A stretch of DNA of 64,000 bases from an uncultured Syntrophomonadaceae bacterium. GTDB taxonomy: Bacteria > Bacillota > Dethiobacteria > DTU022. Position numbers and translations under genes: made by a program. The stretch's first letter is position 1; every line of letters starts with the position of its first letter. The DNA is taken from positions 3,628 through 67,627 of the forward strand of contig CAYXBB010000002.1 in the NCBI GenBank assembly GCA_964463285.1, read 5' to 3'. Below, in pieces: positions 7,869 through 54,316 of this stretch. A model generated the notes under the pieces. The model was not told the DNA's origin. It worked only from the letters and a program-made list of their open reading frames with translations, and did not search any database.

Positions 7869-7967
7869 GCCTCTTCACCCCCCTTACCAGTATTATATTT
7901 CGACGAATAACATAATACTCCTGCTATTTTTGCAAACAAGTCTGACAGATTGCTTTTAAGGGCAGAT

Positions 7968-8918: not shown

Positions 8919-8960
8919 CTTTGCCGGTTGTATTACCTCCGGGAAGCCACATTTTACGCA

Positions 8961-27809: not shown

Positions 27810-28917
27810 TTACCGGCGACCCATTTTCCGGCGCAGGTAGGAATCTATAAACAGGTCCAAATCGCCATCCATTACCGCCTCTACCTGTCCCATCTCTACA
27901 CCGGTGCGATGATCCTTCACCAGGGTAAAGGGATGAAAAACATAAGAGCGAATCTGGCTTCCCCAGGCGATATCTTTTTGCGGGCCCCGCAAGTTCTTTA
28001 TCTCCTGATCCAGCTCCAGCCGGTGAAGTTCCGCCAGCCGGGCCTGCAAGATCCGCAGTGCCTGTCGGCGGTTGCTATGCTGGGAACGATCCTTCTGGCA
28101 AGTGGCAGATATACCGGTGGGCAGATGGATAACCCGCACCGCCGAATCAGTCTTGTTTACATGCTGTCCCCCCGCTCCGCTGGAGCGGAACGTCTCCACC
28201 TTCAAATCGTCGGGATCCAACTCATACTCTTCCTCTTCCACCTCAGGAATTACATCTACCGATGAAAAAGAAGTATGACGCCGGTGGGCGGTATCGAAAG
28301 GAGAGATCCGCACCATGCGGTGCACCCCTTTTTCTGATTTAAGAAGCCCGTAAGCGCGGTAGCCTCGGATAATAACGGTAGCGCTTTTGATCCCCGCTTC
28401 ATCATCTGTTAGCAACTCTGCCAGTTCCACCCCAAATCCCTTGTTTTCAGCCCACCGGCAATACATTCTAAGCAGCATCTCCGCCCAGTCCTGCGATTCC
28501 AATCCCCCCGCCCCCGGATGAATTGAGAGAATGGCATCACTGGAATCGTGTTCGCCTCCAAACAGGGTTTCCATCTCCAGCCTGTCCAGCTGCTTTATAA
28601 TTAAATTTAGCTTGTCGCCGGCCTCTAGGCGAGCTTCCTCGCGCCCGAACTGTTCCTCTTCAGCCAGTTCCAGCAAGATCTCCACCTCTTCCAGAAGCCG
28701 GTTAAGTTCGGACAACGGGCGGACCTGTTCGGTAAGGCTGCCAATCTCTATTAACAGTTGTTTGGCCCGGGGGGCATCCTCCCAAAACCCTGGGAGCGAC
28801 GCTTCTTTCTCCAGCCGGCATAGGCCGGCTAACTTCTGTTCATATTCAAAGGGAAGCCCTCATCTCTTGAAAACGACGGGTTTGCAGTTCCCACTCTTTC
28901 CGATATTCCCTGGTCAC
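27810..28917 (-). CDS. prfB: Peptide chain release factor 2, requires programmed +1 ribosomal frameshift at CTT TGA A (28851-28845)
   Basis: Frame 0 GTG at 28917 encodes MTREYRKEWELQTRRFQEMRASL then in-frame TGA; +1 frame continues EYEQKLAGLCRLEKEAS...SPF..GGQHVN..; SD-like AGGG precedes the slippery CTT TGA. Confidence 0.85.
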
Positions 28918-28933
28918 AATCTCCACCCTTTCC

Positions 28934-31900
28934 TTATTTCCCACAACAACGCTTGTATTTTTTTCCGCTGCCGCAAGGGCAGGGTTCGTTGCGCCCTACC
29001 TTGGTCACCGTCACCGGTTTTTTTTCTGTCGGTTCTGTCGGCGCACGGGCAGGCGCCTTTATGTTTCCAGCGCCTCCACCTACCGGAGCCACCCGCTGGT
29101 GAGAGGCGGTAGCCGTGGCAATTACATCCCGACGTTGGGTGCGGGTGGCTACCCGCAACAAATAGATTAACCGGGACACTTCTTCCTGAATGGAGCTGAT
29201 CATGGCCTCAAACATATCGAACCCTTCGTGGCGGTACTCCACCAGCGGATCCTGCTGCCCGTAAGCCCTAAGCCCGATACTTTGGCGCAGCTCATGCATG
29301 GCATCAATATGATCCATCCAGTGACTGTCCACTGTGCGCAGTAACACCACCCGCTCCAGATCCCGCATATTTTCAGGGCCGATCTCCTTTTCCCGTCGCT
29401 CGTAATAGGCCAGTGCTTCCTCCAGAAGCAGTTGTTTTGCCGGCTCCAGATCCAGATCTATCAACAAAGAAGGATCCATCTTCCCCGGGGGCAAATAGAA
29501 ACGTTCCCCCTCCCGGACCAGCGCTTCCGCCTGGTCTTGTTCTAGAAACGGTTGTTCCATAAAATAAGTTTGTACCCGGCGGGAAATCACCTCTTCCACC
29601 ATATCCAGGATCGGTTGGCGCATATCTTTCTCTTCCAGTACCTGTTGCCGCTGTTCATAAATCACCCGCCGCTGTTCATTCAAAACATCATCATAATCCA
29701 ACAGGTGGCGCCGGATTTCAAAATTCCGGGATTCCACCTTCTTTTGAGCCCGCTCAATTGCTCCACCGATCAAGGGGTGTTCGATCGGCATATCCTCCTC
29801 CATGCCCAGCCGATCCATAATGGAGGCAATATTACCTCCCCCAAACAGGCGCATCAGATCATCCTCCAGGGAAATAAAAAACTGGGATGAACCGGGATCT
29901 CCCTGCCGCCCGGAACGGCCCCGGAGTTGATTGTCAATTCGCCGGCTTTCATGGCGCTCGGTGCCCAGGACATGCAGTCCCCCTAAACTCAGCACCTCTT
30001 CCCGCTCGCGAGAAGCCAGCGCCTGTGATTTTCCTATCAGCTCATCGTACCGCTGTTTGCGCTGTAGAATTTCTTCCGGTGATAATTCATCCCGCCCGGC
30101 ATATTCCTTGTGGAGTCGCTCACGAGCCAGGAACTCGGGATTGCCCCCCAGGATGATGTCGGTTCCCCGTCCGGCCATGTTGGTAGAGATGGTTACCGCT
30201 CCTTTGCGGCCGGCCTGGGCAATAACCTGGGCCTCCATATCATGGTTTACCGCATTTAACACCTGGTGGGGTATCCCCTGGCGTTTCAGCATCTTGCTGA
30301 GCATTTCGGATTTTTCCACAGAAATAGTCCCCACCAGCACCGGCTGACCGGAAAGGTGACGCTGTTCGATTTCCTCCATCGCCGCTTTAAACTTGGCCCG
30401 TTCGGTTTTAAAAATCATATCTGCCAGATCCTGGCGGATCATAGGTTCATTGGTGGGAATAACCACCACATCCATCCCGTAGATCTTCCGAAATTCTTCC
30501 TCCTCGGTAGCCGCGGTGCCGGTCATTCCGGATAGTTTCTCATACATCCGGAAATAATTCTGAAAGGTGATAGAGGCCACCGTGCGGCTGTCAGCCTGCA
30601 TTTCCACTCCTTCTTTAACCTCGATCGCCTGGTGGATCCCCTCCGAATAACGGCGGCCCCACATCAGCCGGCCGGTAAATTCATCCACTATAATTACTTT
30701 TCCTTCCTGCACCACGTAATCTACATCGCGCTCATAAAGGGAATAGGCCTTTAACAGCTGATGCAGGTAATGGAGATGTTCACCTGCTTCCTGATCCTCA
30801 CTCTCCGGTCCTTCGCCGGTACTGCCGGTGTTTTTAAAACCCAGAACCTGTTCCAGTTCGGCGTTCCCCCGCACCAGCTCCCGGTACCCCTGCTGAGAAA
30901 TGGAAACAGCCCGGGTAATTTCATCGATGGAAAAGTAAAGCTCTTCCTCCAAAACTTTGTCATCTTTATCGGCTTTCAACCGCTGCCTGACCCGTTCTAC
31001 CAACTTCTCCGCTCCCGGCTCTTTCAGCATATTCAGCAGCCGCCTGTTTTTGGGTGCACCCCGGCGGGCCAGGAACAACTGCTCTCCGGCCTCCTCTTTT
31101 AGTCCCTGTTCCAGATATTGCTGTGAGCGGTTCAGCAGCTCACTGATCTGGCGTTGCTGTTTTTTGATGAGGCGCTCCACCTCTCCCTTCCAGCGCCCGT
31201 ATTCGGACTTCGACTCCACCGGGCTGCTGATAATCAGCGGGGTGCGAGCCTCATCTACCAGAATGCTGTCTACCTCATCCACAATGGCATAGTGCAACTC
31301 CCGTTGCACCTGCTGATTTTTTGACAGCACCATATTATCGCGTAAATAATCAAACCCAAATTCGTTGTTGGTCCCATACACTATATCTGCAGAATAGGCA
31401 ATTTGGCGCTGCTCCCGGTTAAGGCCATGAACAATCAGGCCCACTTCCAGGCCCAGAAGGCGAAATATCGGGCCCATCCATTCACTGTCTCTTCGAGCCA
31501 GGTAATCATTGACAGTGATGATGTGAACTCCTTTGCCGGTCAAAGCATTGAGATAAGCCGGCATGACTGCTACCAGGGTCTTCCCTTCTCCGGTTTTCAT
31601 CTCGGCAATACGTCCCTGGTGAAGAACGATTCCTCCCAGTGCCTGCACATCAAAGGGGCGCATCCCCGTAGCCCGGCGAGAAGCCTCTCGGACTACGGCA
31701 AAAGCCTCCGGAAGAATTTGATCCAGGGTGCTCCCATTCCGCAACCGCTCCTTAAAGTGGGCAGTCCTTTGTGGAAACTCTTCGGTGCTTAAAGAGACAA
31801 CCGTCTGTTCCAACTCATTTATCTGTTCCACTATCTTTTGCAGACGTCGAACTTCTTTTTCGTTGGAGTCTCCGAAAAATTTTTGCAGGATGCCAGCCAT

Positions 31901-31942
31901 AAACCAGGGCCTCCTTTTGCTACCTAATACGATTATTTCCAA
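28934..31942 (-). CDS. secA: Preprotein translocase ATPase SecA
   Basis: 1002 aa, DEAD-like motor, C-terminal zinc-binding [14 protein letters not shown]. Confidence 0.97.
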
Positions 31943-32099
31943 TACTACAAAAGGAACCCTGCGGTTCCTTGAATTTTTTTCCCGTAGCAGTATAATATTT
32001 TACCATAGCCAAAAGCCTGTACACAAGGGTTTAAGCGCAGGAACCATTTGCGGGGTAAGCGAAAACCACAGTAAAAAAAATATTACCCTTTCTTGCCGG

Positions 32100-32888
32100 C
32101 TAGTTGATCGGAACACAAAACTTAATAGTTGTTCCGGTTACCGGGCTATCGGCAGTTAAAATTGCACAACCTATCCCATAAGTTTCTTCCAATCTTTTTT
32201 CAGTTATAACATTTTCAACATCGCCTACCGCCAAAATTTTTCCGCCGCTCATCAGGGCTACTTTGCCCGAGAGCAAAAGAGCATGATTAGGAAGATGAGT
32301 TGTCATTAATACAGTCAATCCCTTTTGTGATAATTTGCTGATTATCTTGAGAACAAGTGCTTGGTTTTTGAAATCAAGATGGGAGCAGGGTTCGTCAAGC
32401 AAAATTACATCCGGAGTTTGGGTCAGCGTCCTGGCTATAAGAATTAATTGCCTTTCACCACCGCTTATCTTTGTATAGGGTTTGTCTTTGAGATGAAGCA
32501 TGCCGACCATTTCAAGCGATTGCTCGGCAATATTAACATCTTTGGGCGAAGGCGATTCAAAAAAACCAAGGTAGGGTGCTCTGCCCATGCTTACCACTTC
32601 CAGAACTGAAAAAGGGAAAGGAGCACTGTGTTCCTGAAAAACAAAACCCATCCTTCGTGCCACATCAACCACACTCATATTATAAAGATCAAGCTTATCC
32701 AGAAAAACATGGCCCCTTGCAAGCCGCAAACTACCGTTCAGGCAGCGCAGTAAAGTTGTTTTACCACAACCATTGGCACCCAGAATGCATAGTATTTCAC
32801 CCGGCAAAACATCCAGGGTAATATCACTAAATATTCTTTTATCCCCATAACTAAATGTACCATTTCTAAGGGAAAGAAGCGCTCCCAT
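32100..32888 (-). CDS. ABC transporter ATP-binding protein (FecE/FepC/BtuD-type)
   Basis: 262 aa, Walker A GANGCGKTT, signature SGGERQ; AT-rich gene. Confidence 0.8.
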   Translation of the reverse strand: MGALLSLRNGTFSYGDKRIFSDITLDVLPGEILCILGANGCGKTTLLRCLNGSLRLARGHVFLDKLDLYNMSVVDVARRMGFVFQEHSAPFPFSVLEVVSMGRAPYLGFFESPSPKDVNIAEQSLEMVGMLHLKDKPYTKISGGERQLILIARTLTQTPDVILLDEPCSHLDFKNQALVLKIISKLSQKGLTVLMTTHLPNHALLLSGKVALMSGGKILAVGDVENVITEKRLEETYGIGCAILTADSPVTGTTIKFCVPIN

Positions 32889-33910
32889 TATTGCCAGCCC
32901 CCCTTGGTTTTGCGTATCAAATAGGCAAAAAAAGGTGCTCCGATAAGGGCGGTTAGTATCCCAAGTGGAATTTCTATTGAAACCGAAGCACGGGCTAAAA
33001 CATCAATAATAAGAAGGTAGGTAGCCCCTATAGAAATGCATGCCGGTATCAGCACTCTGTGATCCGGGCCAACCAGCATCCGCCCAATATGAGGAATCAC
33101 TAACCCAACCCACCCAATCATCCCACTGACTGAAACCGCTGAAGCGGTCATTATAGTAGCGCATAATATGATAAATGCCTTTAAAGATTCTGTTTTTATC
33201 CCCAAAGAACGAGCTTCTTCATCTCCCATTGCCAAAATATTTATCCGCCAACGCACCAACAAAAGACCAACCATTCCACAAATAATCCCTGGTAAAGCAG
33301 TAATAACATTTTTAATTGAAGCAGAGTTAAGGCTACCCATAAGCCAGAAGGTAATTGCAGGAAGTTTTTCGTATGGATCGGCCAAATATTTCGTTAACGA
33401 TACCAGGGCAGAAAAAAAAGCCGAGGTAACAACTCCTGAAAGAACAAGCATAATTACGGGGGTGGTTTTATATATACGGCTTATAGAATAGGTTACGATC
33501 ATTCCTATGATACCAAAACCCAATGCGAAGGCCTGGATCATCCCACGGTTGCCGGACAAAAGAATTGCCAGGGCTGCCCCGAAACTGGCCGCCGAAGACA
33601 CCCCTAATATATCCGGGCTGACCAATGGATTTCGGAACATACCTTGAAATGCCGCACCGCTAACAGAAAGAGCCGCCCCAACCAGAGCAGCCAAAAGAGC
33701 GCGGGGTATCCTAATCTGAAATATAACCGTTTCTGTCATGGTTGGCCAATTAGGGGCAAATTTGATTGAGGGAAATATTTTAGTAATTATAATCTGAATC
33801 ACCGTTTGCATAGAAATAGCATATCGGCCTAAAAAAAGGGTGAAAAGAAAAACAAAAATAGGTAAAATAATCAAAGCTACGATCTTTTTTTTAGACATTA
33901 GATCCTCCAA
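32888..33910 (-). CDS. FecCD-family ABC transporter permease
   Basis: 340 aa, about 9-10 TM, FecCD/BtuC-like. Confidence 0.8.
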   Translation of the reverse strand: MEDLMSKKKIVALIILPIFVFLFTLFLGRYAISMQTVIQIIITKIFPSIKFAPNWPTMTETVIFQIRIPRALLAALVGAALSVSGAAFQGMFRNPLVSPDILGVSSAASFGAALAILLSGNRGMIQAFALGFGIIGMIVTYSISRIYKTTPVIMLVLSGVVTSAFFSALVSLTKYLADPYEKLPAITFWLMGSLNSASIKNVITALPGIICGMVGLLLVRWRINILAMGDEEARSLGIKTESLKAFIILCATIMTASAVSVSGMIGWVGLVIPHIGRMLVGPDHRVLIPACISIGATYLLIIDVLARASVSIEIPLGILTALIGAPFFAYLIRKTKGGWQ

Positions 33911-34086
33911 CAGATCATCCTCTGCTGCTTTACAGGGCTAGATTTTTATACCAATGCAGATTTCGCTAGTAGTTGCCGTATTGCGGCTATAAGCTTAATA
34001 CAACACTGGGAGCAGTAAAACTATTATTACTACCCCCAGCACCTTAACCCCGTTCACATTAGACAACCGCCTGCAATGCTATTCGC

Positions 34087-34911
34087 TTAACCCTTTTTCC
34101 ACCATAGGAAAGCCCAACGACAGTTCAATTCCATATTAAGAAAGCCATTGTTGCGAACAAAATATTTAAGCAGATGGTTTTCTAAACGATTCTTTTGCCC
34201 ATCGTTTTCCGGTCTGATCCTCCATACCCAGTCATCCATGGCAATATCTATGTTCTGATAATGTAACTTCTCAACATAATTTACATATTCGACATTCGCA
34301 AAAATTCCTTCTTGGCAAAGCATATTATAAACATAGATATAATCAGGTGCAGAAAGGTACTTTTTCCCGATATTTCCGTAGGTCAATCTAAAAAAATTCT
34401 CATATTCATCACCATTTGCCCACATAACGATATACACATATTTTGTTGCCGCGTTATTCATCAATTTAATCGCTTGTAACGGATCGCGTTCGGGAAAAGC
34501 ACGAGAACAAATAACTACATCATGTGGGTTTACATCTTTTCCAACTATTACATCTTCCCAATTTTTTTTTAGGCATGTTATATTGTTTAAACCCTCTGAT
34601 TTAGCGTTTTTTGCCACATATTGCAACATCTCCCCTGACAAATCCAGGGCAGTAACAGCCTTTACCCGCTTTGCCAAGGGAATGGCTAGAGTCCCGGGGC
34701 CGCAACCGATATCCAACACGGTGGAATCGGGTGTAATGTCGACTTTTTCAAGCACCTCATCGATATATTCTTTGTTTTTTATGTTTCGATCAAAGGCTTC
34801 AGCCCTTTTGTCCCACCATTGTTCACCATCCTTTGTCCAGGAGGATAGGAGCATTTGTTCTTCCCATATTTTCTTCCAATCTATTGAACTGAGGTTTTCT
34901 TGTATTGCCAT
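34087..34911 (-). CDS. Class I SAM-dependent methyltransferase
   Basis: 274 aa, motif I VLDIGCGPGTLA, motif post-I ALDLS. Confidence 0.7.
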   Translation of the reverse strand: MAIQENLSSIDWKKIWEEQMLLSSWTKDGEQWWDKRAEAFDRNIKNKEYIDEVLEKVDITPDSTVLDIGCGPGTLAIPLAKRVKAVTALDLSGEMLQYVAKNAKSEGLNNITCLKKNWEDVIVGKDVNPHDVVICSRAFPERDPLQAIKLMNNAATKYVYIVMWANGDEYENFFRLTYGNIGKKYLSAPDYIYVYNMLCQEGIFANVEYVNYVEKLHYQNIDIAMDDWVWRIRPENDGQKNRLENHLLKYFVRNNGFLNMELNCRWAFLWWKKG

Positions 34912-34914
34912 TTT

Positions 34915-35988
34915 TTATTCTCCCAATAGATCTTTAATTGTTGAATCAGACATATTTTGATTGTAGAATGTCGAATAAAAATCCCTGATTTCTTGTTCCA
35001 TCGTAAAATCAACTTGATCCGGGTGCAATTTGTATATTGTCCACTGCATGCCCAGAATAGATTCGGGAACACCAACATACCAGCAGAATATATAGCCGGG
35101 CATTTGAAAAATTTGCTTGTTTTTGACAGCCTCTATATCAGCGAAGCGTGGGTCAGTAAGCAACTCATCTTTAGTGTCACTGGAACAATAGGTATTAATA
35201 AAAATAACATCCGGGTTCCAATTTAATAATTGTTCTGCGGTAATCTCGGGATATAATTCGCCGACTGTACTGCTGCTACCATCAATTTCTGCAGCAACAT
35301 TTATTCCTCCACCAACCCCCAAAATAAAATCTTCAATTGATGCAGCAGTACATGTTTTTAATATGTCGTGGCTGGTCATATAAACACGGCATTTTTCATT
35401 TTCAGGAATTTGCGAAGCCATATCTTCAATGTTGTTCATCTTGTCTTTGTAGTAAGAAACAAGTTCCTGTGCACGTGCATCTTTGCCCAACACTTTTCCC
35501 ATAAGCTGCATAGATTCGTTGAGATCTTCGATAGTATTCACATCGACATATACTACAGGACAATACTCTTCAATACCCGCAAATCTTTCCCGGTGTATTT
35601 TCCCGGCAAAAACAACATCCGGTTCCAGTTTCAACAATTCTTCTTTGTTATCACCTTCAATATCTCCAAAGCACGGCAAATCTTTAATCCTTGGATCCAT
35701 ACTATGTAAAACTTCACTATTAACATTTAGCATATCTATTCCCACAAAATGCTCAGTTCCATCAATGGCAATAACCATTGCAGTTGATGGTGGAAAAACG
35801 GTGACTACCCTTTCTACCTTGGCTGGAATTTCTACAGTTCTGCCGGCCATATCAACTACTGTTATGGTTTCGTCCCCATCTTCTAGTGCTCCACCGCCTC
35901 CCTGCTCATTGGAACACCCGGCTAAAACGCCTGCAAGCAAGGTGACAAGTAACAGAAAAACCATTGCCTTGTAAATGTTTTTCTTCAT
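34915..35988 (-). CDS. ABC transporter substrate-binding lipoprotein (PF01497-like siderophore/heme/corrinoid-type PBP)
   Basis: 357 aa, lipoprotein signal LLAGCSNE, periplasmic binding protein type III fold hallmarks. Confidence 0.75.
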   Translation of the reverse strand: MKKNIYKAMVFLLLVTLLAGVLAGCSNEQGGGGALEDGDETITVVDMAGRTVEIPAKVERVVTVFPPSTAMVIAIDGTEHFVGIDMLNVNSEVLHSMDPRIKDLPCFGDIEGDNKEELLKLEPDVVFAGKIHRERFAGIEEYCPVVYVDVNTIEDLNESMQLMGKVLGKDARAQELVSYYKDKMNNIEDMASQIPENEKCRVYMTSHDILKTCTAASIEDFILGVGGGINVAAEIDGSSSTVGELYPEITAEQLLNWNPDVIFINTYCSSDTKDELLTDPRFADIEAVKNKQIFQMPGYIFCWYVGVPESILGMQWTIYKLHPDQVDFTMEQEIRDFYSTFYNQNMSDSTIKDLLGE

Positions 35989-36118
35989 CTTAATTTTTGT
36001 TGTTAGTTAATTTGCTGTTCAAAAACCCGGTTTTTTCAATTTTATTGGTTATCCCCCCCCTATGGCAGTGGTTGTCCGGGCCAAGACAGCATCCACATCT
36101 TATTGCTTTATTTTAAAT

Positions 36119-36275
36119 AAAAAAAGGCAATTCCTGGAAGGGAAGTGCCATTTTTTGCAGCATTCTCCTTTCCAAGTTATGGGAGGCAATACCATTTCTA
36201 GTATTACCCTTTGGTTATACCTCGGTTACAAGCCATGCCTTCCGGTTTAGGCGCGTAACTCGGAGCGCTTTTAAT
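36119..36275 (-). promoter_or_regulatory. Structured 5' leader with intrinsic terminator upstream of the ABC-transporter operon; candidate Moco/Tuco-type riboswitch (unverified)
   Basis: Minus strand: GCGCTCCGAG ... GGTAATACtagaaatgGTATTGCCTCCC ATAACTT GGAAAGGAG ... GGCACTTCCcttccaGGAATTGCC TTTTTTT; terminator hairpin plus U7 at 36150-36119, about 130 nt before the start codon. Confidence 0.35.
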
Positions 36276-36468
36276 ATTCAGCTTTGTGTTTACGCTATCA
36301 TGGGTCAATATTTCTGTCAACACAGGGCAAGGTTTTTTTCGCCATCAAAATTAAAATCTGTTGTAAAAAAATCTTTATCATTACCCGGGGATAATCAAAC
36401 AACAAACAAGTGTTTTATTTTAACCCAGCCAAAAAACTAAAGGTCTACAGGCACTGGTTTGGGTTCGG

Positions 36469-37590
36469 CTAAACCTGGATATTGCCGGCAGCCAGTTCCT
36501 CGGCAATCGTCCACAGGCTGCCCGATACCAGGGAATGCCCCCCTAACATTACCGGGATCGGGCAGGAGACAGCCTCCCGGGTAAAACTTCTTAACCAGGG
36601 ATGATCAATCTCCTGGTACCTGCCCAAATCCGAAAGAAATCGTTCCCGATCCGAAAAGCTGTAACGGTAATGGGCCATCAGCACCCGAGTATCAATGAAT
36701 GCCGCCCCGACTATCCGGGAAAGGTAGTCGAAGAAGTTAGGTATCCCCGCATGGTCAATAAGGCAGCCCATTAAAGAGACTACCTGCTTTGCCTTCACCC
36801 GGCCCAGGGCCTTCATACCTCGTTCCTCGGAAAACACCCGCAGCCGGATTTTTAAGCTGGAATTAAGACGTTCAATTGCCGGGGCTCCTACCCGACCAAT
36901 AAGTGCTACCTCCTGGTAGTAGCCACTTAAAACCTGTTTGGCCCGCCGCAACCGGGAATAATCCCAGTCCAAGCCCGACAGGCAGGCCCTGGTTTGGGGA
37001 CCGGCAAAGGGGCTATCCCCCAGCACCAGGCCGTCAGCAGGAGTATCCAGATCAAATAACAAGCCCGAAGTAAAGGGCATCAATGCAAGTTCCAGTCCTA
37101 GCTGATCACGAAGGGTAGTTGCCAGGGTATTATCCATAGCCGGTAAGTCTATTCCGGAAAAATCCCCGGTTACCGTAAAAGCTACCAGGTCCGCAGACTG
37201 AACATTGTTGGCATAAAGCAGGCGAGTGCTGTTCAACAGGCGCCGGCAGATTGAAGACACCTCATCCTCCCTTACCAGGGGGCAGCCGGCGCCGCTAAAA
37301 TAAAACACTTTGGATAGGCGATGTTCCAGGATCAACCTTTTTAGTTCCGTTCCGAAATTAAATGAACCCGGAGAAAGGTGATTGAGAATTACCGTGGCTC
37401 CCTTCGCCCGGGCCAGTTCCGCCAGTTGGCGGTCATTGGTAGCCAGGTAAATCATACCGATCTCGGTTACCCGGTTGAGTTTATCCAGGTTGTCCAGCAG
37501 GGCGGCGGTACGTATCGAAGTAAGTTCCAACTCTACCGGGCTGGCCGGAGAGGTCCCTTCAAATATTACTGCGCTAACCTGTTCTAACAT
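36469..37590 (-). CDS. Conserved hypothetical protein (373 aa), unassigned
   Basis: Long ORF with high coding GC unlike adjacent AT-rich island; no motif I can assign. Confidence 0.4.
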   Translation of the reverse strand: MLEQVSAVIFEGTSPASPVELELTSIRTAALLDNLDKLNRVTEIGMIYLATNDRQLAELARAKGATVILNHLSPGSFNFGTELKRLILEHRLSKVFYFSGAGCPLVREDEVSSICRRLLNSTRLLYANNVQSADLVAFTVTGDFSGIDLPAMDNTLATTLRDQLGLELALMPFTSGLLFDLDTPADGLVLGDSPFAGPQTRACLSGLDWDYSRLRRAKQVLSGYYQEVALIGRVGAPAIERLNSSLKIRLRVFSEERGMKALGRVKAKQVVSLMGCLIDHAGIPNFFDYLSRIVGAAFIDTRVLMAHYRYSFSDRERFLSDLGRYQEIDHPWLRSFTREAVSCPIPVMLGGHSLVSGSLWTIAEELAAGNIQV

Positions 37591-37617
37591 ACACCGTTCC
37601 TTCCCGGTAATTTTAGC

Positions 37618-38184
37618 TTAACTCTCCGGATCAATTAAACCATAATTGCCATCCCGTCGCTGATAAAGCACATTTACCCTGTTATTGGAAGCATTGGCAA
37701 ACACAAAAAAAGTATGCCCCAGCAGGTTCATCTGCAAGATGGCCTCTTCCAGATCCATCGGTTTTAAGGGGAATCGCTTGGTCTTTACAATCTTTTTTTC
37801 CTCATATTTTTCATCGTACAGAGAGGAGACCAGTTTCTCATTGGCCGCCCGCAGCCCCTTGTGGCGCATGGATTTGGTTAAGCGAGTTTTATACTTGGCC
37901 ACCTGCTTTTCCAGCTTTGCTACCACCATGTCGATAGAAGCATACATGTCGCCGGTGGATTCTTCCCCGCGTAGGATCAAGCCGTTAATATTCACCGTAA
38001 CCTCCACGATATGGCTTTCCCGAACCACGCTCATAACCACTTGGGCGCCGGTTTCTCTCCCAAAAAATTTCGAAAGTTTCCCTAGTTTTTTAGTAGCATA
38101 ATCAACCAACGCCGGAGTAACTTCGATGTTTTTTCCCCTAACCGTAATATCCATGAGCATCCTCCCTTTCCTTGCTCTTACCAT
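37618..38184 (-). CDS. hpf: Ribosome hibernation-promoting factor (long HPF, YvyD-like)
   Basis: MDITVRGKNIEVTPAL..; N-terminal S30AE domain plus C-terminal dimerisation domain; true start likely Met at 38154. Confidence 0.85.
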   Translation of the reverse strand: MVRARKGRMLMDITVRGKNIEVTPALVDYATKKLGKLSKFFGRETGAQVVMSVVRESHIVEVTVNINGLILRGEESTGDMYASIDMVVAKLEKQVAKYKTRLTKSMRHKGLRAANEKLVSSLYDEKYEEKKIVKTKRFPLKPMDLEEAILQMNLLGHTFFVFANASNNRVNVLYQRRDGNYGLIDPES

Positions 38185-38324
38185 TACTATTCCCCGACAG
38201 GTATAAAATTCCTACCTGAATGCTCATTAAATTGGGCGCCAGTTTACAAAGATAACAGTCTTAATGACCAGTATTATAAAGCAAGAGCGGCGGTGGTAAT
38301 CAGTTTGCTTTAAGAATCGCCTTG

Positions 38325-39044
38325 TCAGGTGAAAGCTTGAAAGGCCGCTACCGCCCCGTATACTTTCACCTCGGAATAACTCAACACCGCAGCCGCCTCT
38401 CTCATGGTAGCTCCGGTGGTATAGATATCATCTACCAGCAAAACAGAACTGCCGGGAGCAAGAGCCCTATTTAGCAAAAACGCTCCTGCGGCATTCTTGA
38501 AACGTTCCCGACGAGAAAAGCCGGTTTGCGAAGGAGTGTCTTTTACCTTCTTTAAAACCGGGATCAGCGGTAACCCAAGCACCTTGGCCACCCGGCGGGC
38601 TAGCAGTTCCGACTGGTTATACCCCCTTTCCAAAGCCTTGCGGGGGTACAGGGGTATAAAGGCTACCGAGTTTAAAACCCAACCGGTTTTTTCCAGCAAA
38701 GCTGTTCCCAGCCAGTCTCCCAGGGGGCGAGACAACTGCCGCTGCCCTCGGTATTTCAACCGGTGCAACATTTTCCGGAATTCACCCTGGTAAAAGGATA
38801 AAACAAACAGGGATCTCAAGGGGCCGTCTCCGGAGCAACATTCTCCCGGGCCTTTGTAAAAACAACCACACCAGGGACAATAAAGCCCTGCTAAGGGAAC
38901 ATCGTTCCGGCATTTGAAGCAGCAAGGAGACCCTGAAGAATCCCAATCAGTCAACACTGCTTCACAGATCAAACAGCGGGGAGGGTAAAGCAGCCGCAAA
39001 GCCGCCTCCGGCCAGCACCGGATATTTTTATGAGGCTTATTCAA
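38325..39044 (-). CDS. comFC: ComF-family competence protein (ComFC; zinc-finger + phosphoribosyltransferase fold)
   Basis: 239 aa, N-terminal CxxC...CxxC, C-terminal PRTase motif VLLVDDIYTTGAT. Confidence 0.75.
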   Translation of the reverse strand: MNKPHKNIRCWPEAALRLLYPPRCLICEAVLTDWDSSGSPCCFKCRNDVPLAGLYCPWCGCFYKGPGECCSGDGPLRSLFVLSFYQGEFRKMLHRLKYRGQRQLSRPLGDWLGTALLEKTGWVLNSVAFIPLYPRKALERGYNQSELLARRVAKVLGLPLIPVLKKVKDTPSQTGFSRRERFKNAAGAFLLNRALAPGSSVLLVDDIYTTGATMREAAAVLSYSEVKVYGAVAAFQAFT

Positions 39045-41277: not shown

Positions 41278-42462
41278 CTATCCTCGTTTCAAATCCGAGA
41301 TCCGGTCCGTCCTTTCCCAGGGCAGATCCAGGTCAGGGCGGCCAAAATGCCCGTAAGCTGCCACCTGCCGGTAAATGGGACGGCGAAGATTGAGTTGCTC
41401 TATAATGGCCGCGGGGCGAAGATCAAACCTTTGTCGGATCAGTTCCTCAATATAGTTGTCCTTTTCCAACCCTGTCCCAGAAGTATCTACCGTTAAAGAT
41501 ACCGGTTGGGCCACCCCGATGGCGTAAGCCACCTGAAGTTGACACTTTTTAGCCAACCCGGCTGCCACAATGTTTTTAGCTACGTAGCGGGCGGCATAAG
41601 CCGCCGAGCGATCAACCTTGGTGGGATCTTTGCCCGAAAAAGCCCCTCCACCATGGGGAACATACCCACCATAGGTATCAACCATCAGCTTGCGACCGGT
41701 TAGACCGGCATCCCCCTGCGGCCCACCTATTACAAACCTCCCGGTGGGGTTAATTAAGATTCTGGTGTCCGGGGTTATCAATTCGGCGGGAACGGTTTCC
41801 AAAATAACTTGCCGGGTGATATCCTCCCGAATTGTTTCCAAATCAGTTTCGTTGGAATGTTGAGCCGAAACCACTACCGTCTCCACGCTAACCGGTCGCC
41901 CCTGTTCATAAAGCACGGTGATCTGGGTTTTGCCATCGGGGCGCAGATAATCCAGGATTTCCTGTTTGCGCACTTCGGCTAGACGCCTGGCCAGCCGGTG
42001 AGCTAAAGAGATCGGCAATGGCATCAATTCCGGGGTTTCGGTACAGGCAAACCCCATCATCATCCCCTGATCGCCCGCTCCCAACAAATTATAATGATTC
42101 TTTTCATCACCGGTTTTAGCCTCCCGGGAATGATTTACCCCCAGGGCAATATCCGGCGACTGCTCGTCTATAGAACAAAGAACTGCACAGGTATCCCCAT
42201 CGAACCCAAATTTGGCCCGGGTATAGCCGATCCGCTTTACTGTTTTCCGGACCAGATGGGGGATGTCTACATAGCAGTCAGTTGAAATTTCACCACAAAC
42301 AAATACCATGCCGGTTGTGACCATGGTCTCCGTAGCCACCCGGGCTACCGGATCCTGGCCGATAATCTCATCCAGAATTGAATCGGAAATCTGATCCGCC
42401 AGCTTATCCGGATGGCCTTCTGTAACTGATTCCGATGTGAACAGGTGCCGCCGTGATGTCAA
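41278..42462 (-). CDS. metK: S-adenosylmethionine synthetase
   Basis: 394 aa, [19 protein letters not shown] signature; TTG start with AAAGGAGG RBS. Confidence 0.95.
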
Positions 42463-42494: not shown

Positions 42495-42640
42495 AAAAAC
42501 AAAAAACCTCTTTAAAGATTGAGGCCTGAAATAGAACCTCTCATCTCCCGGAGCAGATCACTCTCCCCGCAGGAATTGGCACCGCAATCTAAGATCCGGT
42601 TGCCGGGATTCATCGGGCCCGTCCCTCCTCCACTCAGGAT
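42495..42640 (-). promoter_or_regulatory. SAM-I (S-box) riboswitch with terminator, leader of metK
   Basis: Minus strand CTCTTATCCTGAGTGGAGGAGGGACGGGCCCGATGAATCCCGGCAACC...GGTGCCAATTCCTGC...AGAGTGA matches S-box consensus; followed by hairpin and TTTTTTGTTTTTT. Confidence 0.85.
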
Positions 42641-42850
42641 AAGAGCTAAATTATAGAAATTATTAACATCAAAATACACTAAAATAATCCGGGTGTCAAA
42701 TAATAGTGAAGGAGGACCAGGCATTCCGTAAATGCCCTGTGATTAATTGTCGGCTTGGCGAATAAATATATCACGGGTGATTCCTTTCTTAAATATTTCA
42801 GTTATAAATATAGGCAGGAATTGCTAAAAATCAAATTGGAGGTGTTCTAT

Positions 42851-47534: not shown

Positions 47535-48290
47535 TTATATCGCCAACCCTTCAAATAGCTTATCGGCGGCCTTTACCGCCGCAATCCCGGCTGACAGTTC
47601 CAAAAGCGCTTTCCCGGCAATATCATAATTCACAATCGCAGGCTCGAAGGGAATTTCCCCTAACAACTCAAGACCGGTACGGGCGATCTCCTCAGAAAGC
47701 TGCTCCACTTCCCCGGCCCGGCTGCGTGAGATCACCAGGCCCATCCGGCCTATTTCCAACCGCAGGCTACCGGCTATTTCGCGGATCCGGCCGGCAGTGC
47801 GCACGCCCCTGGCAGTGGCATCGCTGGTAATCAAGAGCAAATCGGCCTGGGGCAAGACCCGCCGGCTTATATGTTCCATTCCCGCCTCGTTATCCATGAT
47901 TAAATAATCATAGTTAACACTCAACCTCTCCAGGAAACGACGCAATAGATCATTGGGGTAACAGTAACAACCAGGGCCCTGGGGATTGCCCATCACCAGC
48001 AAATCAAAATGTTTTGTCTCCACCAGAGCTTTATTGAGATTGTATTCTATAAAAATATCCTTGGTCATCCCAACCGGAACACCACCAGGCTTTTTGGTTG
48101 TTTCCAGGATTGTGGCAATAGTTTCCTCAACAGCCAAACCAAGGGCTTCATTAAGATTTGCGTTGGCATCGGCATCCACGACCAGCATTGTTTTGTCGGG
48201 ATGCTTTTCCTGCAAATAGCGGATCAACAGGGCAGCCAGGGTGGTTTTTCCGGTGCCCCCTTTACCTGCAATAGCAATGCGTTTTGTCAT
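47535..48290 (-). CDS. cooC: CooC/AcsF-type nickel-insertion ATPase (MinD/ParA superfamily)
   Basis: 251 aa, deviant Walker A GKGGTGKTT, conserved metal-binding C-x-C (GPGCYCYP) typical of CooC. Confidence 0.75.
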   Translation of the reverse strand: MTKRIAIAGKGGTGKTTLAALLIRYLQEKHPDKTMLVVDADANANLNEALGLAVEETIATILETTKKPGGVPVGMTKDIFIEYNLNKALVETKHFDLLVMGNPQGPGCYCYPNDLLRRFLERLSVNYDYLIMDNEAGMEHISRRVLPQADLLLITSDATARGVRTAGRIREIAGSLRLEIGRMGLVISRSRAGEVEQLSEEIARTGLELLGEIPFEPAIVNYDIAGKALLELSAGIAAVKAADKLFEGLAI

Positions 48291-49645
48291 CAGATCACTG
48301 CCTCTCGATCAAAAAATAGGGTGGTGGCAAACAGCCGTCCCGCGACCGCCTTTTCCAGTTGGGCGATGGTATTGCAGGGCCACATTTCCACAAGTTCACT
48401 GAACGCTGCCACCGAGCGATGGCGGGACCACTGTTCCGGCGGCAGGGGGTTCAGCCAGATTATTTTCCGAACCCGCTCTTTCAGCCTTTGCAGCTCCGGC
48501 AAAGCCGTATCCAATTTAATCGTCCGGGTATCGCTGACCACGATTACTATCGTCCGGGAGGTGAGCAGCTCACGATAATAACCGTTAAGTTCTGCCAGGG
48601 CAGCACCGATATTGGTGCCGCCTCCCCAGGATCTTCCATGTAGAATTACGCGCCCCAGGAGCTGATCCAATCCGGACTGCTGTTCAAGAGCAGGGGTGAG
48701 ATATTCCAGGGTGTCCGCAAAGGAAAAAAGCTCCAGGTTGGATACCGCCGCCTGCAGGCCATAGATAAACTGCAGTACAAAACTACTGTAACGTTCCATG
48801 GAAGCAGAAAGATCGCCGATAAAAAGCAACTGTAGTTTTGAGCGCCGTTTCCGCCTATATTTTAGCAAAAAGGGTTGGCCACCGTGGCGCATGTTCATCC
48901 GAACCGTGCGGCGAAAATCGAGCGCCCCCCGGGACGCATCCCTTTGGCGGCGTTGCACCAACCGGCGAGCCAGCTGTTGAGAAAGTCGGTTGATCAACGC
49001 TTTGGCCGCCGGAAGGTCCGCCTGGCCGAGCATCTGCATGTCAGACTCACACAACCGCTTATCCTCTTTCCCAGCAGCCCCACAACTGCCGGCTCCTCCT
49101 GCGGCAAAATTACCTCTTGAAAAGATCTGATCCCTTCGGCTATGCCAGTAGCGCAACTGCCCTTTGACCACAGTCTCTAAAAGAGGTCTAAGGGGACGCA
49201 TTTCTTTTTCGGCTGCCTCAGTTTCTCGCACAAAACGGCACAGGCTCCGCTGCTCTTTTTCAGGCAAAGCGGTATAAAGCAGCATTTCTTCGTTAGAAAG
49301 ACACAGCGGTTCTCCCTTGAAAGAAAGCTCATCAGCAGCGCTTTTCAATCTCATTTTTTGTTCCTCCTGCTGTTGCCGGGCCTCCCGAAATTGCCGGTTC
49401 CGGGTTTCCAATGGAACAAAATATCGCTCAAAGGCCTCTTCAAAAACCTGCAAGTCGTGATAACTTTTTACCAGGGTGGCCCGAAGGGCATCTTTGAAGG
49501 CTGTACGATCGGCAATATCGATATGTTCCAGTGCCCGCAAAGCGTCCAACAATTCCGCTGTTCCCAAGGGAAGACCCTCAGCTCGCAGCAGTGCAGCAAA
49601 AATAGCCATGTTCTCTTCAAAAGAGCAATCCGCCGGTGCGGTCAT
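48290..49645 (-). CDS. VWA-domain protein, CoxE-like
   Basis: 451 aa, C-terminal VWA with MIDAS DxSxS (GDLSASM); overlaps MoxR gene by 4 nt. Confidence 0.75.
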   Translation of the reverse strand: MTAPADCSFEENMAIFAALLRAEGLPLGTAELLDALRALEHIDIADRTAFKDALRATLVKSYHDLQVFEEAFERYFVPLETRNRQFREARQQQEEQKMRLKSAADELSFKGEPLCLSNEEMLLYTALPEKEQRSLCRFVRETEAAEKEMRPLRPLLETVVKGQLRYWHSRRDQIFSRGNFAAGGAGSCGAAGKEDKRLCESDMQMLGQADLPAAKALINRLSQQLARRLVQRRQRDASRGALDFRRTVRMNMRHGGQPFLLKYRRKRRSKLQLLFIGDLSASMERYSSFVLQFIYGLQAAVSNLELFSFADTLEYLTPALEQQSGLDQLLGRVILHGRSWGGGTNIGAALAELNGYYRELLTSRTIVIVVSDTRTIKLDTALPELQRLKERVRKIIWLNPLPPEQWSRHRSVAAFSELVEMWPCNTIAQLEKAVAGRLFATTLFFDREAVI

Positions 49646-50580
49646 GGACAGGTATACTCTCCTTCCCCGTTTACGGGATTTCGCAATAACCGATCTATGC
49701 CTGTTTTTCCGATTTTTCTGTGAAACAGCAACTGGTCCTGGCGATTTTTCAACAACAGGTTAAGGGTATCGGTTACCAGTACGCCATCAAGTCTCTTCTT
49801 ACCCAAGGTCATCAAGGCCTGCGTCCAGTCAAGAGTTTCAGCAATCGAAGGTTTTTTCCGCAAATCTTCTTGGCAACGAAGATGGGCAATCACCCGGGCA
49901 ATCTCTGTGGCCAGACGTTCCCCCACCTCCGGGATCCGGGCCTGGATGATCTGGGTTTCTCTGGCGATATCCGGGAATTCGAAATACAGGTAAAGACAAC
50001 GTCGTTTCAGGCCGTCGGAAAGTTCTCGCTCGCTGTTGCTGGTTAGAACCACTACGGGGATATTTTCCGCCTTCAGCGTACCCAGTTCGGGAATTGAAAC
50101 CTGGAAATCAGAGAGGATTTCGAATAAAAAGGCTTCGAATTCGGGATCGGTTTTGTCAACCTCATCAATCAAAAGAACCACCTGACGGAGGGAGCGAATG
50201 GCTTTTAACAGGGGCCTCTCAAGCAGATAGGAGAGAGAAAATAGATCCTCTTCCCCAACTTGTGCCCCCTCAAGGCCGCGCTCAATCTGGATCCGCAATA
50301 GCTGTCGCTGGTAATTCCATTCGTAAAGTGCTTTGGTCTCATCAAGACCTTCATAACATTGCAAGCGGATCAACTCCGTCTCCAGGATCTCCGCCAGCAC
50401 CTTCCCCATTTCTGTTTTTCCCACGCCCGGAGCACCCTCAATCAATAGCGGTTTCTGTAGCCTCAGGGCCAGGAAAACGGTAAGAACGGCACTTTGATCA
50501 ATGATATATCCGCTGGCAGCAAAGCGCTGCTGCAACTCAGCCAGGTTTACCTGCACGGTTAGCCTCCCTTTTTGTAACAT
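49642..50580 (-). CDS. MoxR-family AAA+ ATPase (CoxD-like)
   Basis: 312 aa, Walker A GAPGVGKTE, Walker B LLIDEVDK, MoxR-type helix-2 insert. Confidence 0.8.
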   Translation of the reverse strand: MLQKGRLTVQVNLAELQQRFAASGYIIDQSAVLTVFLALRLQKPLLIEGAPGVGKTEMGKVLAEILETELIRLQCYEGLDETKALYEWNYQRQLLRIQIERGLEGAQVGEEDLFSLSYLLERPLLKAIRSLRQVVLLIDEVDKTDPEFEAFLFEILSDFQVSIPELGTLKAENIPVVVLTSNSERELSDGLKRRCLYLYFEFPDIARETQIIQARIPEVGERLATEIARVIAHLRCQEDLRKKPSIAETLDWTQALMTLGKKRLDGVLVTDTLNLLLKNRQDQLLFHRKIGKTGIDRLLRNPVNGEGEYTCP

Positions 50581-52834: not shown

Positions 52835-54133
52835 TTATTTTGGTTCGTTAGAGGAAGCTGAGAGCAATTTTTTCATAGCCTCCCGGTCTAGCTTACGCTT
52901 ATATTCCGACTCCATCTCCAAGAGAGCATAAGGATAACTGTATTCATCCATTAGCCGTAAATATGGCTCAGGAGCAAAAGCCTCCGGCCCGAACACCCCC
53001 CTTCCCTGCCATACCCCTTTGCCGATCAGTTCCAGGGTAATAGCCGTTCCGTATGCGGTTTGAGCCACCACTACCTGGGAACCCAAACGCTCCATGGTCT
53101 CCTGGTTATCCAGGCTCTGGTAAATAAAGACTTCCCGATGCAGCCCGTCTTTTTTACCGGTAACATGCACTCCTACGCACATTTTTCCTTTAAGCTTATC
53201 TCCGATATAGGCGGGATTTGGAGCTACCGCTTCCACCACATCCCGAGGTGATAGTTTAATCCCCTGAAAATCTATTTTTTCCTTACGATCCAAACCCAAA
53301 GCTCTCAGAACCTTCATCGCATTTATAATATCATCGCCCAGGGCAATTTTAAACGAAACTTTTTTTAGCCCTTTGTCAATATAGCGCGGCATGAGCACCA
53401 CTTCTTCATGCTCCACCTTCATTAATTTAACCGGGCCGATGCCTTCGGGAAAATAAAATATTTCCGGATCAGCAAACGGTTCCTGAACGTACCAGCCTTT
53501 TTCTCTCTCCCAGGTAACCGGAGGATTTAAAGTTTCATCGATCATGGTCCAGATTGAAAATCCAAAAGCAATTTCCAGCCCTTCGGCGGTTAGATTACCC
53601 CCATCTTTAACTGCAATCTCGTCAAGCTCGTCAAAACAATGTATCTCGGCAAACTTTGCAAACACATCCACCACGCCGGGATCAATGCCGGCTCCAATTA
53701 CCGCCATCAACCCTTTCTGCTGCCATTTGGAATCGGCCTGGAAATTGTAGGAGGCCATCAGTTCCGTATATCCCCGACCGATCGGATCTTCCGGATGAGG
53801 TTCCGACCAGGTCCCTAAATTTATATAATGACAACCCGCCTCAAAAGCAGCATCAAATAAATTTTTGGTCACAAACGGCGCCGCCGTATCCAGGATTAAA
53901 TCCACGCCATGTTTTCGGGCCAGGGCAACTACTTCTGAAATTTCTTGAGCATTAACCGGTTCCGCCGGAAATCTTTCCGGATCACCCACTTTTTGGGCTA
54001 CCTCCCCGGCTCTTTCCAGGTTGTAATCCGCCAATACCATTTTCTGTAACCAGTTACCCCTCTGATCCCGATCCCGAATTATCATGGCGATGGCTTCGCC
54101 TACCCCGCCTGTACCTACCAGCAACACTCTCAT
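52835..54133 (-). CDS. Saccharopine-dehydrogenase-like NAD(P) oxidoreductase, paralog 1
   Basis: 432 aa, N-terminal Rossmann VLLVGTGGVGEAIA, Sacchrp_dh_NADP-like plus C-terminal alpha/beta domain. Confidence 0.75.
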   Translation of the reverse strand: MRVLLVGTGGVGEAIAMIIRDRDQRGNWLQKMVLADYNLERAGEVAQKVGDPERFPAEPVNAQEISEVVALARKHGVDLILDTAAPFVTKNLFDAAFEAGCHYINLGTWSEPHPEDPIGRGYTELMASYNFQADSKWQQKGLMAVIGAGIDPGVVDVFAKFAEIHCFDELDEIAVKDGGNLTAEGLEIAFGFSIWTMIDETLNPPVTWEREKGWYVQEPFADPEIFYFPEGIGPVKLMKVEHEEVVLMPRYIDKGLKKVSFKIALGDDIINAMKVLRALGLDRKEKIDFQGIKLSPRDVVEAVAPNPAYIGDKLKGKMCVGVHVTGKKDGLHREVFIYQSLDNQETMERLGSQVVVAQTAYGTAITLELIGKGVWQGRGVFGPEAFAPEPYLRLMDEYSYPYALLEMESEYKRKLDREAMKKLLSASSNEPK

Positions 54134-54316
54134 TTTTTAAATCCCTCCTTATCAGTTATTGGTGGTATTGGGAAGCATTTGCAATAAGATCTAAACTAAT
54201 AATCTCGTTGGCATCGGGGGACATTTACAACTAGTCTTAAGTATGACAGTTTAGTGATGCGGTTTAACCTTTCAGGCAAGATCATTATTCGATAAATGTT
54301 CGAAATACCCTACTAT

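Follow-up and report, generated by a model that had tools for sequence, protein, structure and literature searches.

The stretch of DNA analysed here (64,000 nucleotides (nt) from an uncultured Syntrophomonadaceae bacterium, hereafter the window) carries, next to secA, four co-directional genes on the minus strand (32100-35988), which encode a substrate-binding protein (SBP), a class-I S-adenosylmethionine (SAM) methyltransferase (MTase), a FecCD permease, and an ATP-binding cassette (ABC) ATPase. Directly upstream of this four-gene operon, and on the operon strand, sits an aptamer of the RF01055 family, i.e., the riboswitch family of the molybdenum and tungsten cofactors (Moco and Tuco, respectively). 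The subject of this analysis is the low-GC island formed by these genes and their leader, and in particular the likely cargo of the importer, its control, and the part that an MTase may play beside it.

Importer, methyltransferase, and leader

The first gene of the operon (34915..35988, minus strand) encodes a MolA-like substrate-binding lipoprotein of 357 aa, which carries the lipobox LAGC and matches PF01497 (Pfam E = 7e-26). Among PDB sequences, its matches are, in order, 4ovk, 4hn9, and 4pag, the ligands of which are unassigned, and then MolA (HI1472, 3psa; E = 2.4e-24). In a fold comparison of its AlphaFold2 (AF2) model (predicted local distance difference test score, pLDDT, of 88), MolA is the second match (template-modelling (TM) scores of 0.73/0.79, 24% identity), followed by YiuA, a binder of Fe-catecholate fragments, and CeuE of H. 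pylori, whose ligand is Ni-(His)2. The permease (32888..33910, minus strand; 340 aa; Pfam E = 1e-87) is MolB-like, its best PDB match being HI1471 MolB with 251.8 bits, vs. 170 bits for FhuB, 168 for HmuU, and 144 for BtuC. The best PDB match of the ATPase (32100..32888, minus strand; 262 aa; Pfam ABC_tran) is HI1470 MolC (148 bits). The island proteins all score far under the cut-offs of the Fec, Fhu, Fep, Btu, and IsdE models of NCBIfam; the best NCBIfam match of the permease is the archaeal-type BtuC (246 bits vs. a cut-off of 461), and the SBP reaches 36 bits against the BtuF model (cut-off 234). No siderophore genes were found in the island, either in the gene list or by Pfam.

The MTase gene (34087..34911, minus strand; Pfam Methyltransf_25/31/11) encodes a cytoplasmic protein of 274 aa without a signal peptide. 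Its AF2 model (pLDDT 92.5) consists of a Rossmann core to which a family-specific N-terminal helix and a C-terminal lid are added, and these two elements hold the signatures of the family, IDW..W..WD.RA at the N-terminus and PDYIYVYN.L..GI ... WALIWW in the lid. In an alignment of 32 family sequences, D131, R137, Y191, and N196 are invariant, and H130 and S136 occur in at least 90%. The nearest folds are small-molecule methyltransferases, generic in function (TM 0.55-0.63, 13-17% identity), and include carboxyl O-methyltransferases (Tam, BioC, JHAMT), N-methyltransferases (OxaG, RoqN), and thiol S-methyltransferases (TmtA, GtmA). A weak similarity to CbiT, BchM, and CpaM is restricted to the SAM-binding region. 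The family is large, with 635 matches at E<=1e-5 among 90%-identity clusters and 605 clusters at 50% identity (E<=1e-30), and some of its members are tandem fusions.

A gap of 3 nt separates the SBP stop from the MTase start, and the genes for the permease and the ATPase share 1 nt. Between the MTase and permease genes lies a structured spacer of 176 nt (33911..34086, minus strand) with a 14-bp hairpin and a folding energy of -63.6 kcal/mol (z = -3.4). This spacer has no Rfam match on the operon strand and is not conserved, being shorter in a homologous locus (L002) and replaced by overlapping MTase and permease genes in another (L087). On the opposite strand, a PsrR1 match at 33862-33947 (plus; 23 bits, E 0.7) was dismissed as a chance hit.

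The RF01055 aptamer (36149..36277, minus strand) was identified by an Rfam covariance-model scan with 64.6 bits vs. a gathering score of 36 (E = 3.5e-14), and the match covers model positions 1-135 of 135. Its P1, P2, P4, and P5 helices are present in the cmscan alignment, and CCGAG, CUAA, and GGAAAGGAG are invariant among six RF01055 matches from five loci. However, P3 is missing: P2 and P4 are separated by only 11 nt (GAGGUAUAACC), and the alignment marks the P3 columns as non-canonical, unlike in the RF01055 matches of loci L087, L091, and L090, where the P3 hairpin is present. The window element thus belongs to the P3-less subclass, whose variants track Tuco genes (Regulski 2008, PMC2408646; Eubacterium limosum, PMC11725836), so that Tuco binding by this subclass would be a correlation taken from the literature.

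Downstream of the aptamer, an intrinsic terminator can be read from the sequence (36119..36149, minus strand), in which GGCACUUCC and GGAAUUGCC form the hairpin arms and U7 follows. The terminator 5′ arm and loop can alternatively pair with the 3′ P1 strand of the aptamer (UUGGAAAGGAG, 36175-36165), i.e., they can form an antiterminator. In the minimum free energy fold of the free leader, UUGGAAAGGAG is indeed paired with CUUCCCUUCC, which spans the terminator 5′ arm and loop (z = -3.1). Modelled in this manner, the leader has the predicted layout of a classic transcriptional OFF switch, because bound cofactor would stabilise P1, the terminator would form, and the operon would be shut. Upstream of the aptamer lies a candidate promoter (36292..36320, minus strand) made up of TTGACA, a 17-nt spacer, and the extended -10 element TGaTAGCGT; this candidate comes from reading the sequence only and was not listed by a consensus promoter scan. 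No cobalamin riboswitch (RF00174) was found at E<=1 in 31000-38500 by the Rfam scan, and no Fur-box-like site with <=3 mismatches occurs in 35989-36480.

A low-GC insertion beside secA

The island (32037..36481, not assigned to a strand) is ~4.45 kb long and is delimited by GC content and by a break in homology to the two loci with the nearest SecA relatives, L095 (SecA 90% identical) and L094 (87%), both from uncultured Bacillota. Its GC content is 0.408 vs. 0.510 in the remainder of the window, and it is the lowest-GC 4.4-kb stretch within the 64 kb; along the profile, the flanking genes lie at ~0.54 and the island region at 0.38-0.44. The island genes have a GC of 0.39-0.43 and a GC at third codon positions (GC3) of 0.35-0.39, whereas the 40 other genes of the window have 0.520±0.033 and 0.563±0.044, respectively, which places the GC3 of the island genes at z = -4.0 to -4.9.

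In both L094 and L095, the gene order is metK - recD2-like - phosphoribosyltransferase (PRTase) - hpf - an open reading frame (ORF) of 373 aa (ORF373) - secA - prfB - yitT, with no transporter at the same site and an ORF373-secA spacer of ~125 nt. The nucleotide homology of the window to these loci ends at ~36482 and starts again at ~32036, from where downwards the identity to the L094/L095 spacer and the 5′ end of secA is 78-86%. The insertion point is thus the ORF373-secA spacer. Both junctions retain a copy of this spacer: the native copy with the secA promoter lies at the downstream junction (31985..32036, minus strand; L094/L095 alignment), and a diverged second copy lies at the upstream junction (36405..36460, minus strand). 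A four-way alignment of the two junction copies with the L094 and L095 spacers shows the shared core TTTTGGCT..G.TAAAAT, and the copies pair up as an imperfect direct repeat of ~50 bp which flanks the island. No integrase or transposase genes were found among the island ORFs (gene list and Pfam scan). The closest homologous modules sit on contigs of lower GC, i.e., 0.45 for L002 and 0.32 for L003.

The island is a horizontally acquired insertion, because it is AT-rich and is missing at the same site in relatives whose SecA is 87% and 90% identical; for the host genome, the cassette is a recent acquisition that is predicted to regulate itself. Much of this agrees with the original prediction, made from the sequence without database searches, which had described an AT-rich, apparently horizontally acquired operon of the same four genes and had proposed a comparison with the orthologous interval of relatives, the outcome of which is given above. 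Its description of overlapping or 4-nt-spaced genes is borne out at the SBP/MTase and permease/ATPase junctions, but not across the 176-nt spacer. It had also placed the operon between secA and hpf; the island does adjoin secA, but a native-GC gene (ORF373, 36469-37590) separates it from hpf. Finally, the span that it gave, 32100-36330, covers the four genes but misses the promoter-proximal part of the island, and the riboswitch within it had gone unrecognised.

The 373-aa protein encoded at 36469-37590 (minus strand) has no Pfam or NCBIfam match, and its length is kept at 373 aa between hpf and secA in L094 and L095.

Related loci and characterised systems

A scan of genome contigs, in a collection that does not include the genome of the window, with the single MTase sequence returned two Methanobacterium loci only (L005, L006), and a scan of metagenome contigs with the MTase alignment, which involved generic SAM-motif patterns, contributed L007-L013 as the relevant ones among the matches listed. 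In every examined locus in which the MTase is at least 40% identical to that of the window (L001-L004, L007, L087, L096-L099), a type II importer adjoins it, and in these loci the identities co-vary over all four genes. The MTase family accompanies this importer type in Bacillota, Methanobacterium, Paracoccus, and E. coli. Judged from these neighbourhoods, the MTase is a conserved, functionally coupled partner of the importer and no stray insertion, since many lineages have these four genes side by side, with identities that co-vary; the alternative raised beforehand, that a common independent gene had merely landed there, fails on the same grounds. We found no description of a link between MolBC and a methyltransferase in the literature.

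RF01055 precedes related PF01497/FecCD operons in three other loci. In L087, the aptamer (48.6 bits) is followed by SBP - MTase - FecCD - ATPase - MoeA, where the MTase is 41% identical to that of the window, and a divergent HTH_3+PBP_like regulator precedes the riboswitch operon. In L093 (Aceticella autotrophica), the aptamer (75.2 bits) heads an operon with a TupA/ModA-like SBP, a ModB-like permease, DUF364, an ATPase, FecCD, and a further ATPase, which continues with a PF01497 SBP, a methyltransferase of another type, and a radical-SAM::PF01497 fusion (7849-9633); MoeA and a molybdopterin oxidoreductase are encoded opposite this operon. In L091 (Acididesulfobacillus acetoxydans), the aptamer (74.2 bits) is followed by FecCD - SBP - TrmO_N::FmdE - DUF364 - ATPase - radical SAM - SBP - ModA-like SBP. 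The ATPase of L087 (6991-8172) carries a C-terminal extension of ~130 aa without a Pfam match.

Other homologous loci have the following contexts. The Methanobacterium module (L005/L006) reads MTase (37% identical to the window protein) - SBP (31%) - FecCD (53%) - ATPase (45%) and is embedded among two DUF364 genes, two FmdE genes, further methyltransferases, and a ModABC-like transporter. In a Dehalococcoidia contig (L090), the MTase homologue is found with XdhC, a radical-SAM enzyme (Zn_ribbon_HMPTM), a NifX-like protein, an AMP-binding protein, another MTase, and a C_GCAxxG protein, and tandem RF01055 elements (13172-13291 and 13466-13587, minus strand) lie ahead of an operon resembling formate dehydrogenase (FDH) and NADH dehydrogenase which adjoins the XdhC/MTase cluster. 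The Paracoccus arrangement is TonB-dependent receptor - MTase - FecCD - ATPase - SBP, in which the MTase is a more distant, full-length family member that has the signature motifs, and proteobacterial MTases without a transporter occur beside purL and TbpB/Slam genes (L010-L012). Across the homologous loci, the genes linked to molybdenum (Mo) or tungsten (W) comprise MoeA, the PBP_like regulator, Mod/Tup-type transporters, ModD, DUF364, and FmdE, and no cob/cbi genes were found in any locus examined. A weak cobalamin riboswitch match in L002, on the wrong strand and under the gathering score, was rejected. In metagenome contigs L096-L099 (e.g., L096 397-9339), the module reads FecCD - ATPase - SBP - SBP - MTase, with an MTase 40% identical to that of the window, and is tied to an uncharacterised nitrogenase-like cluster; the literature offered nothing specific on nitrogenase-like clusters with such transporters.

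In E. coli, a six-gene island between treA and ymgE (L100/L102) has the order SBP - FecCD - ATPase - MTase - ModD - TonB-dependent receptor, and 2140 of 5426 complete genomes (~39%) carry at least 80% of this cluster. Its MTase is 25% identical to that of the window over the full length, shares the N- and C-terminal signature motifs, and is translationally coupled to modD, while its permease likewise best-matches MolB (223 bits). The two systems are alike in the homologous MTase, the MolB-like permease, and the link to Mo, which in E. coli is made via modD; the E. coli version differs in its Gram-negative layout, outer-membrane receptor, and ModD, and no RF01055 was found with it. No paper characterising this six-gene island was found.

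The closest characterised system is MolABC of Haemophilus influenzae (HI1470-HI1472), whose three-component architecture the island shares. MolBC-A is a low-affinity type II importer of molybdate and tungstate (PMC4031551, PMC4245157), and its prototype locus in Haemophilus is modA-molABC-modD (PMC3928620). MolB and MolC are the best solved relatives of the island permease and ATPase, and among characterised proteins, MolA is nearest to the SBP in both sequence and fold. Both systems are linked to Mo genes, namely modA/modD in Haemophilus, and the riboswitch, mod/tup, and moeA in the relatives of the island system. However, the island SBP is a Gram-positive lipoprotein only ~24% identical to MolA, and the island has a SAM methyltransferase of its own and a riboswitch of the Moco family, neither of which is described for MolABC in the literature that we found; the regulation of MolABC is stated as unknown (PMC4031551).

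As a riboswitch, the leader resembles known members of the Moco/Tuco regulon (RF01055; Regulski et al. 2008) in its full-length aptamer, the P3-less form, and a terminator-type expression platform. The usual RF01055 targets are moa, mod, tup, and Moco/Tuco enzymes, whereas the target here is a FecCD-type importer with an MTase. The supplementary domain legend of the 2008 study lists TroA_e (cd01142), COG0609, COG1120, and FecCD (pfam01032) near Moco RNAs, but the main text does not take these domains up, and the study has no mention of a methyltransferase partner (PMC2408646). A published parallel is E. limosum, where P3-less RF01055 elements with a terminator precede two "Fe ABC-type" transporters, fetABC1 and fetABC2, just as such a leader precedes the ABC transporter of the island, and fetABC1 is up-regulated under W limitation (PMC11725836). 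DUF364 and FmdE occur in the extended neighbourhoods of the Methanobacterium, Aceticella, and Acididesulfobacillus modules, but not in the four-gene cassette of the window; both have been linked to Mo/W or metal transporters without an assigned function (PMC2954201, PMC2954224, bioRxiv 2024.03.05.583561).

Cargo, methyltransferase role, and host context

We regard it as fairly probable that the island is a self-contained, horizontally acquired, cofactor-repressed cassette for the acquisition of W (or Mo). The reasons are that an RF01055 element, P3-less and scoring 64.6 bits, lies directly upstream; that the leader has a terminator along with an antiterminator that excludes it; and that MolB, MolC, and MolA are the characterised structures nearest to the permease, ATPase, and SBP, respectively. 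To these are added the RF01055 elements at the head of related PF01497/FecCD operons in L087, L093, and L091, the position of the Methanobacterium module among DUF364, FmdE, and ModABC-like genes, and the coupling of the E. coli MTase to modD together with the modA-molABC-modD order of the Haemophilus prototype. By analogy, the rise of E. limosum fetABC1 in W limitation is what would be expected of a W-supply gene. Both the import of W/Mo and the control by the riboswitch are predictions from sequence comparison. They differ from the original prediction, which had proposed a corrinoid, a siderophore/heme-type ligand, or a quorum molecule as cargo; that proposal finds no support, as the scans described above gave neither a cobalamin riboswitch nor a Fur box, and there are instead the Moco/Tuco riboswitch, the nearest relationship to MolABC, and the Mo/W-linked neighbours.

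The cassette would then work as follows. From its own promoter, a P3-less "Tuco-type" riboswitch would be transcribed together with the four genes. At high levels of the metal-pterin cofactor, its binding to the aptamer would stabilise P1, which would free the GGCACUUCC/GGAAUUGCC-U7 hairpin and terminate transcription. When the cofactor is scarce, the 3′ strand of P1 would pair with the 5′ arm of the terminator, and the operon would be read through. The products would assemble into a MolABC-like type II ABC importer, with a lipoprotein SBP, a MolB-like permease, and a MolC-like ATPase, which would take in W or Mo as the oxyanion (as MolABC does in Haemophilus) or as a small complex. In the cytoplasm, the substrate of the MTase may be the imported form itself or its organic carrier, and the metal would thereby become available to MoeA-type insertion. 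The sequences show the island, the match to the riboswitch, the alternative hairpins, the homologies, and the recurrent synteny, while the nature of the cargo, the OFF behaviour of the switch in vivo, and the MTase substrate are inferred.

Several observations weigh against this account. The SBP is only 24% identical to MolA, with three uncharacterised SBPs being closer, and the structural neighbours that come after MolA, YiuA and CeuE, have Fe-catecholate fragments and Ni-(His)2, respectively, as ligands. A free oxyanion would offer a methyltransferase no obvious methyl acceptor. RF01055 was not found in the E. coli and Paracoccus loci, nor in L002-L004 and L096-L099, among which its lack in L002 and L096 counts here. 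In L096-L099, the module is directly followed by NifH-like, two NifD/K-like (Oxidored_nitro), and Oxidored_molyb genes, and in Desulfosediminicola (L088) an MTase homologue stands alone beside gidA, without a transporter or a Mo/W neighbour. In addition, the sole published reading of Tuco-controlled "Fe ABC" transporters is that of the E. limosum authors, who interpret fetABC as iron importers (PMC11725836).

Part of the difficulty would be removed if the real cargo were complexed W or Mo and the cytoplasmic MTase alkylated a ligand atom to free the metal for MoeA, although we consider this unlikely. The cargo might be an organic chelate (a "tungstophore" or "molybdophore") or, in sulfidic habitats, a thiotungstate or thiomolybdate, and the methyl acceptor would be a carboxylate, hydroxyl, thiol, or sulfido ligand atom. 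Free oxyanions would then not be the primary cargo of MolABC-like importers, in keeping with a MolA affinity for oxyanions of only ~100 uM. We retain this version because of the lack of a methyl acceptor on the oxyanion, the TonB receptor and ModD of the E. coli cluster, and the chelate-binding structural neighbours of the SBP. Under sulfidic conditions, molybdate quickly turns into thiomolybdate (PMC10390477), which would fit the anaerobe-centred distribution of the module. Were it true, the transporters under Tuco riboswitches that have been read as iron importers would in fact carry tungsten.

A rival view, in line with the proposal for E. limosum fetABC1/2, is that the island encodes an Fe-chelate importer under Tuco control, so that iron supply keeps pace with the formation of Fe-S-rich tungstoenzymes; it seems to us about as doubtful. 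PF01497/FecCD systems are typically iron-chelate importers, NCBIfam yields FecB/FecC/FecE-type matches (all under cut-off), an Fe-catecholate binder is among the structural neighbours of the SBP, and in E. limosum, where Tuco riboswitches stand before two such transporters, cellular Fe is 12-fold higher on lactate (PMC11725836). However, with the predicted OFF switch, iron uptake would drop just when tungstoenzymes can be made, and it is under W limitation that fetABC1 goes up (PMC11725836). MolB and MolC are also the clear best matches, the leader lacks a Fur-box-like site within the mismatch limit given above, and the neighbours in related loci are mod/tup, MoeA, ModD, DUF364, and FmdE, not iron genes. 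Still less probable is the salvage of a pterin-type compound, i.e., Moco/Tuco, molybdopterin, cyclic pyranopterin monophosphate (cPMP), or a breakdown product, with the MTase modifying the pterin or dithiolene. The company of the MTase homologue in L090 points in this direction, namely XdhC, a NifX-like protein, and the radical-SAM enzyme, for which we presume a pterin-methylase connection from the name of its Zn_ribbon_HMPTM domain. Type II importers usually carry ligands of cofactor size, the ligand of RF01055 is the cofactor itself (PMC2408646), and the DUF364 proteins that adjoin related modules were predicted to act on pterin- or flavin-like molecules (PMC2954201). Yet MolA, the nearest characterised SBP, binds oxyanions, and co-located MoeA, a metal-insertion protein, and Mod/Tup oxyanion transporters point to metal supply. 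Moco is, moreover, extremely oxygen-labile and is not known to pass between cells.

The least probable reading, to which we give very little weight, is an importer of corrinoids or other tetrapyrroles with a ligand-remodelling MTase. The archaeal-type BtuC match of the permease (246 bits), the weak similarity of the MTase to CbiT, BchM, and CpaM, and the NifH/NifDK-like genes that follow one homologous module could be cited for it, since DPOR and CfbCD, known relatives of the latter, act on tetrapyrroles. However, the permease match lies under its cut-off of 461 and BtuC is ~100 bits under MolB among the solved structures, the MTase similarity is confined to SAM binding, cob/cbi genes are lacking as described above, and the leader has a Moco-family riboswitch and, at E<=1, no cobalamin riboswitch.

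Returning to W/Mo acquisition, both the MolABC-like importer and the riboswitch of the Moco family are parts of known kinds. A mobile cassette that combines them is not described in the literature that we found, and neither is the dedicated MTase partner or the accessory set shared by Bacillota, Archaea, and Proteobacteria. Mo/W uptake is usually explained by ModABC, TupABC, and WtpABC alone, with MolABC seen as a low-affinity curiosity. The island and about ten related loci indicate a widespread second route of W/Mo acquisition via type II importers, centred on anaerobes, which brings its own SAM methyltransferase and elsewhere DUF364, FmdE, radical-SAM, and ModD proteins of unassigned function. 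The conserved MTase suggests a missing step in Mo/W acquisition, and since a homologous module is found in ~39% of complete E. coli genomes, its role is open to direct genetics.

The host context fits such a supply. An aldehyde ferredoxin oxidoreductase (AOR)-family gene (AFOR_N + AFOR_C) lies in the window at 57905-59809 (minus strand), 22 kb from the island, and belongs to the archetypal family of tungstopterin enzymes, in which the members characterised so far are tungstoenzymes. The host therefore plausibly needs tungsten, and the cassette probably feeds its AOR-type enzyme. Together with genes for a class-III aminotransferase and two saccharopine-dehydrogenase-like proteins, the AOR-family gene seems to form an operon that lies downstream of a sigma-54 activator (genes listed with it at 56589-57908, 52835-55639, and 60455-62131).

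Three other features of the window are recorded here. A pair of genes for a CoxD-like AAA_5 ATPase and a CoxE-like VWA protein occupies 48290-50580 (minus strand); such CoxD/CoxE-like pairs elsewhere assist the maturation of Mo-containing hydroxylases. A SAM-I riboswitch (RF00162, 80.9 bits; 42538-42645, minus strand) lies upstream of a metK-like gene (41278-42462), which is an ordinary arrangement. The prfB frame, encoding release factor 2 (RF2), is split in the ORF list (27810-28715, minus strand, and upstream), with a 301-aa ORF that starts at TTG, and the prfB products in the relatives are 344 and 298 aa, consistent with the programmed +1 frameshift of RF2.

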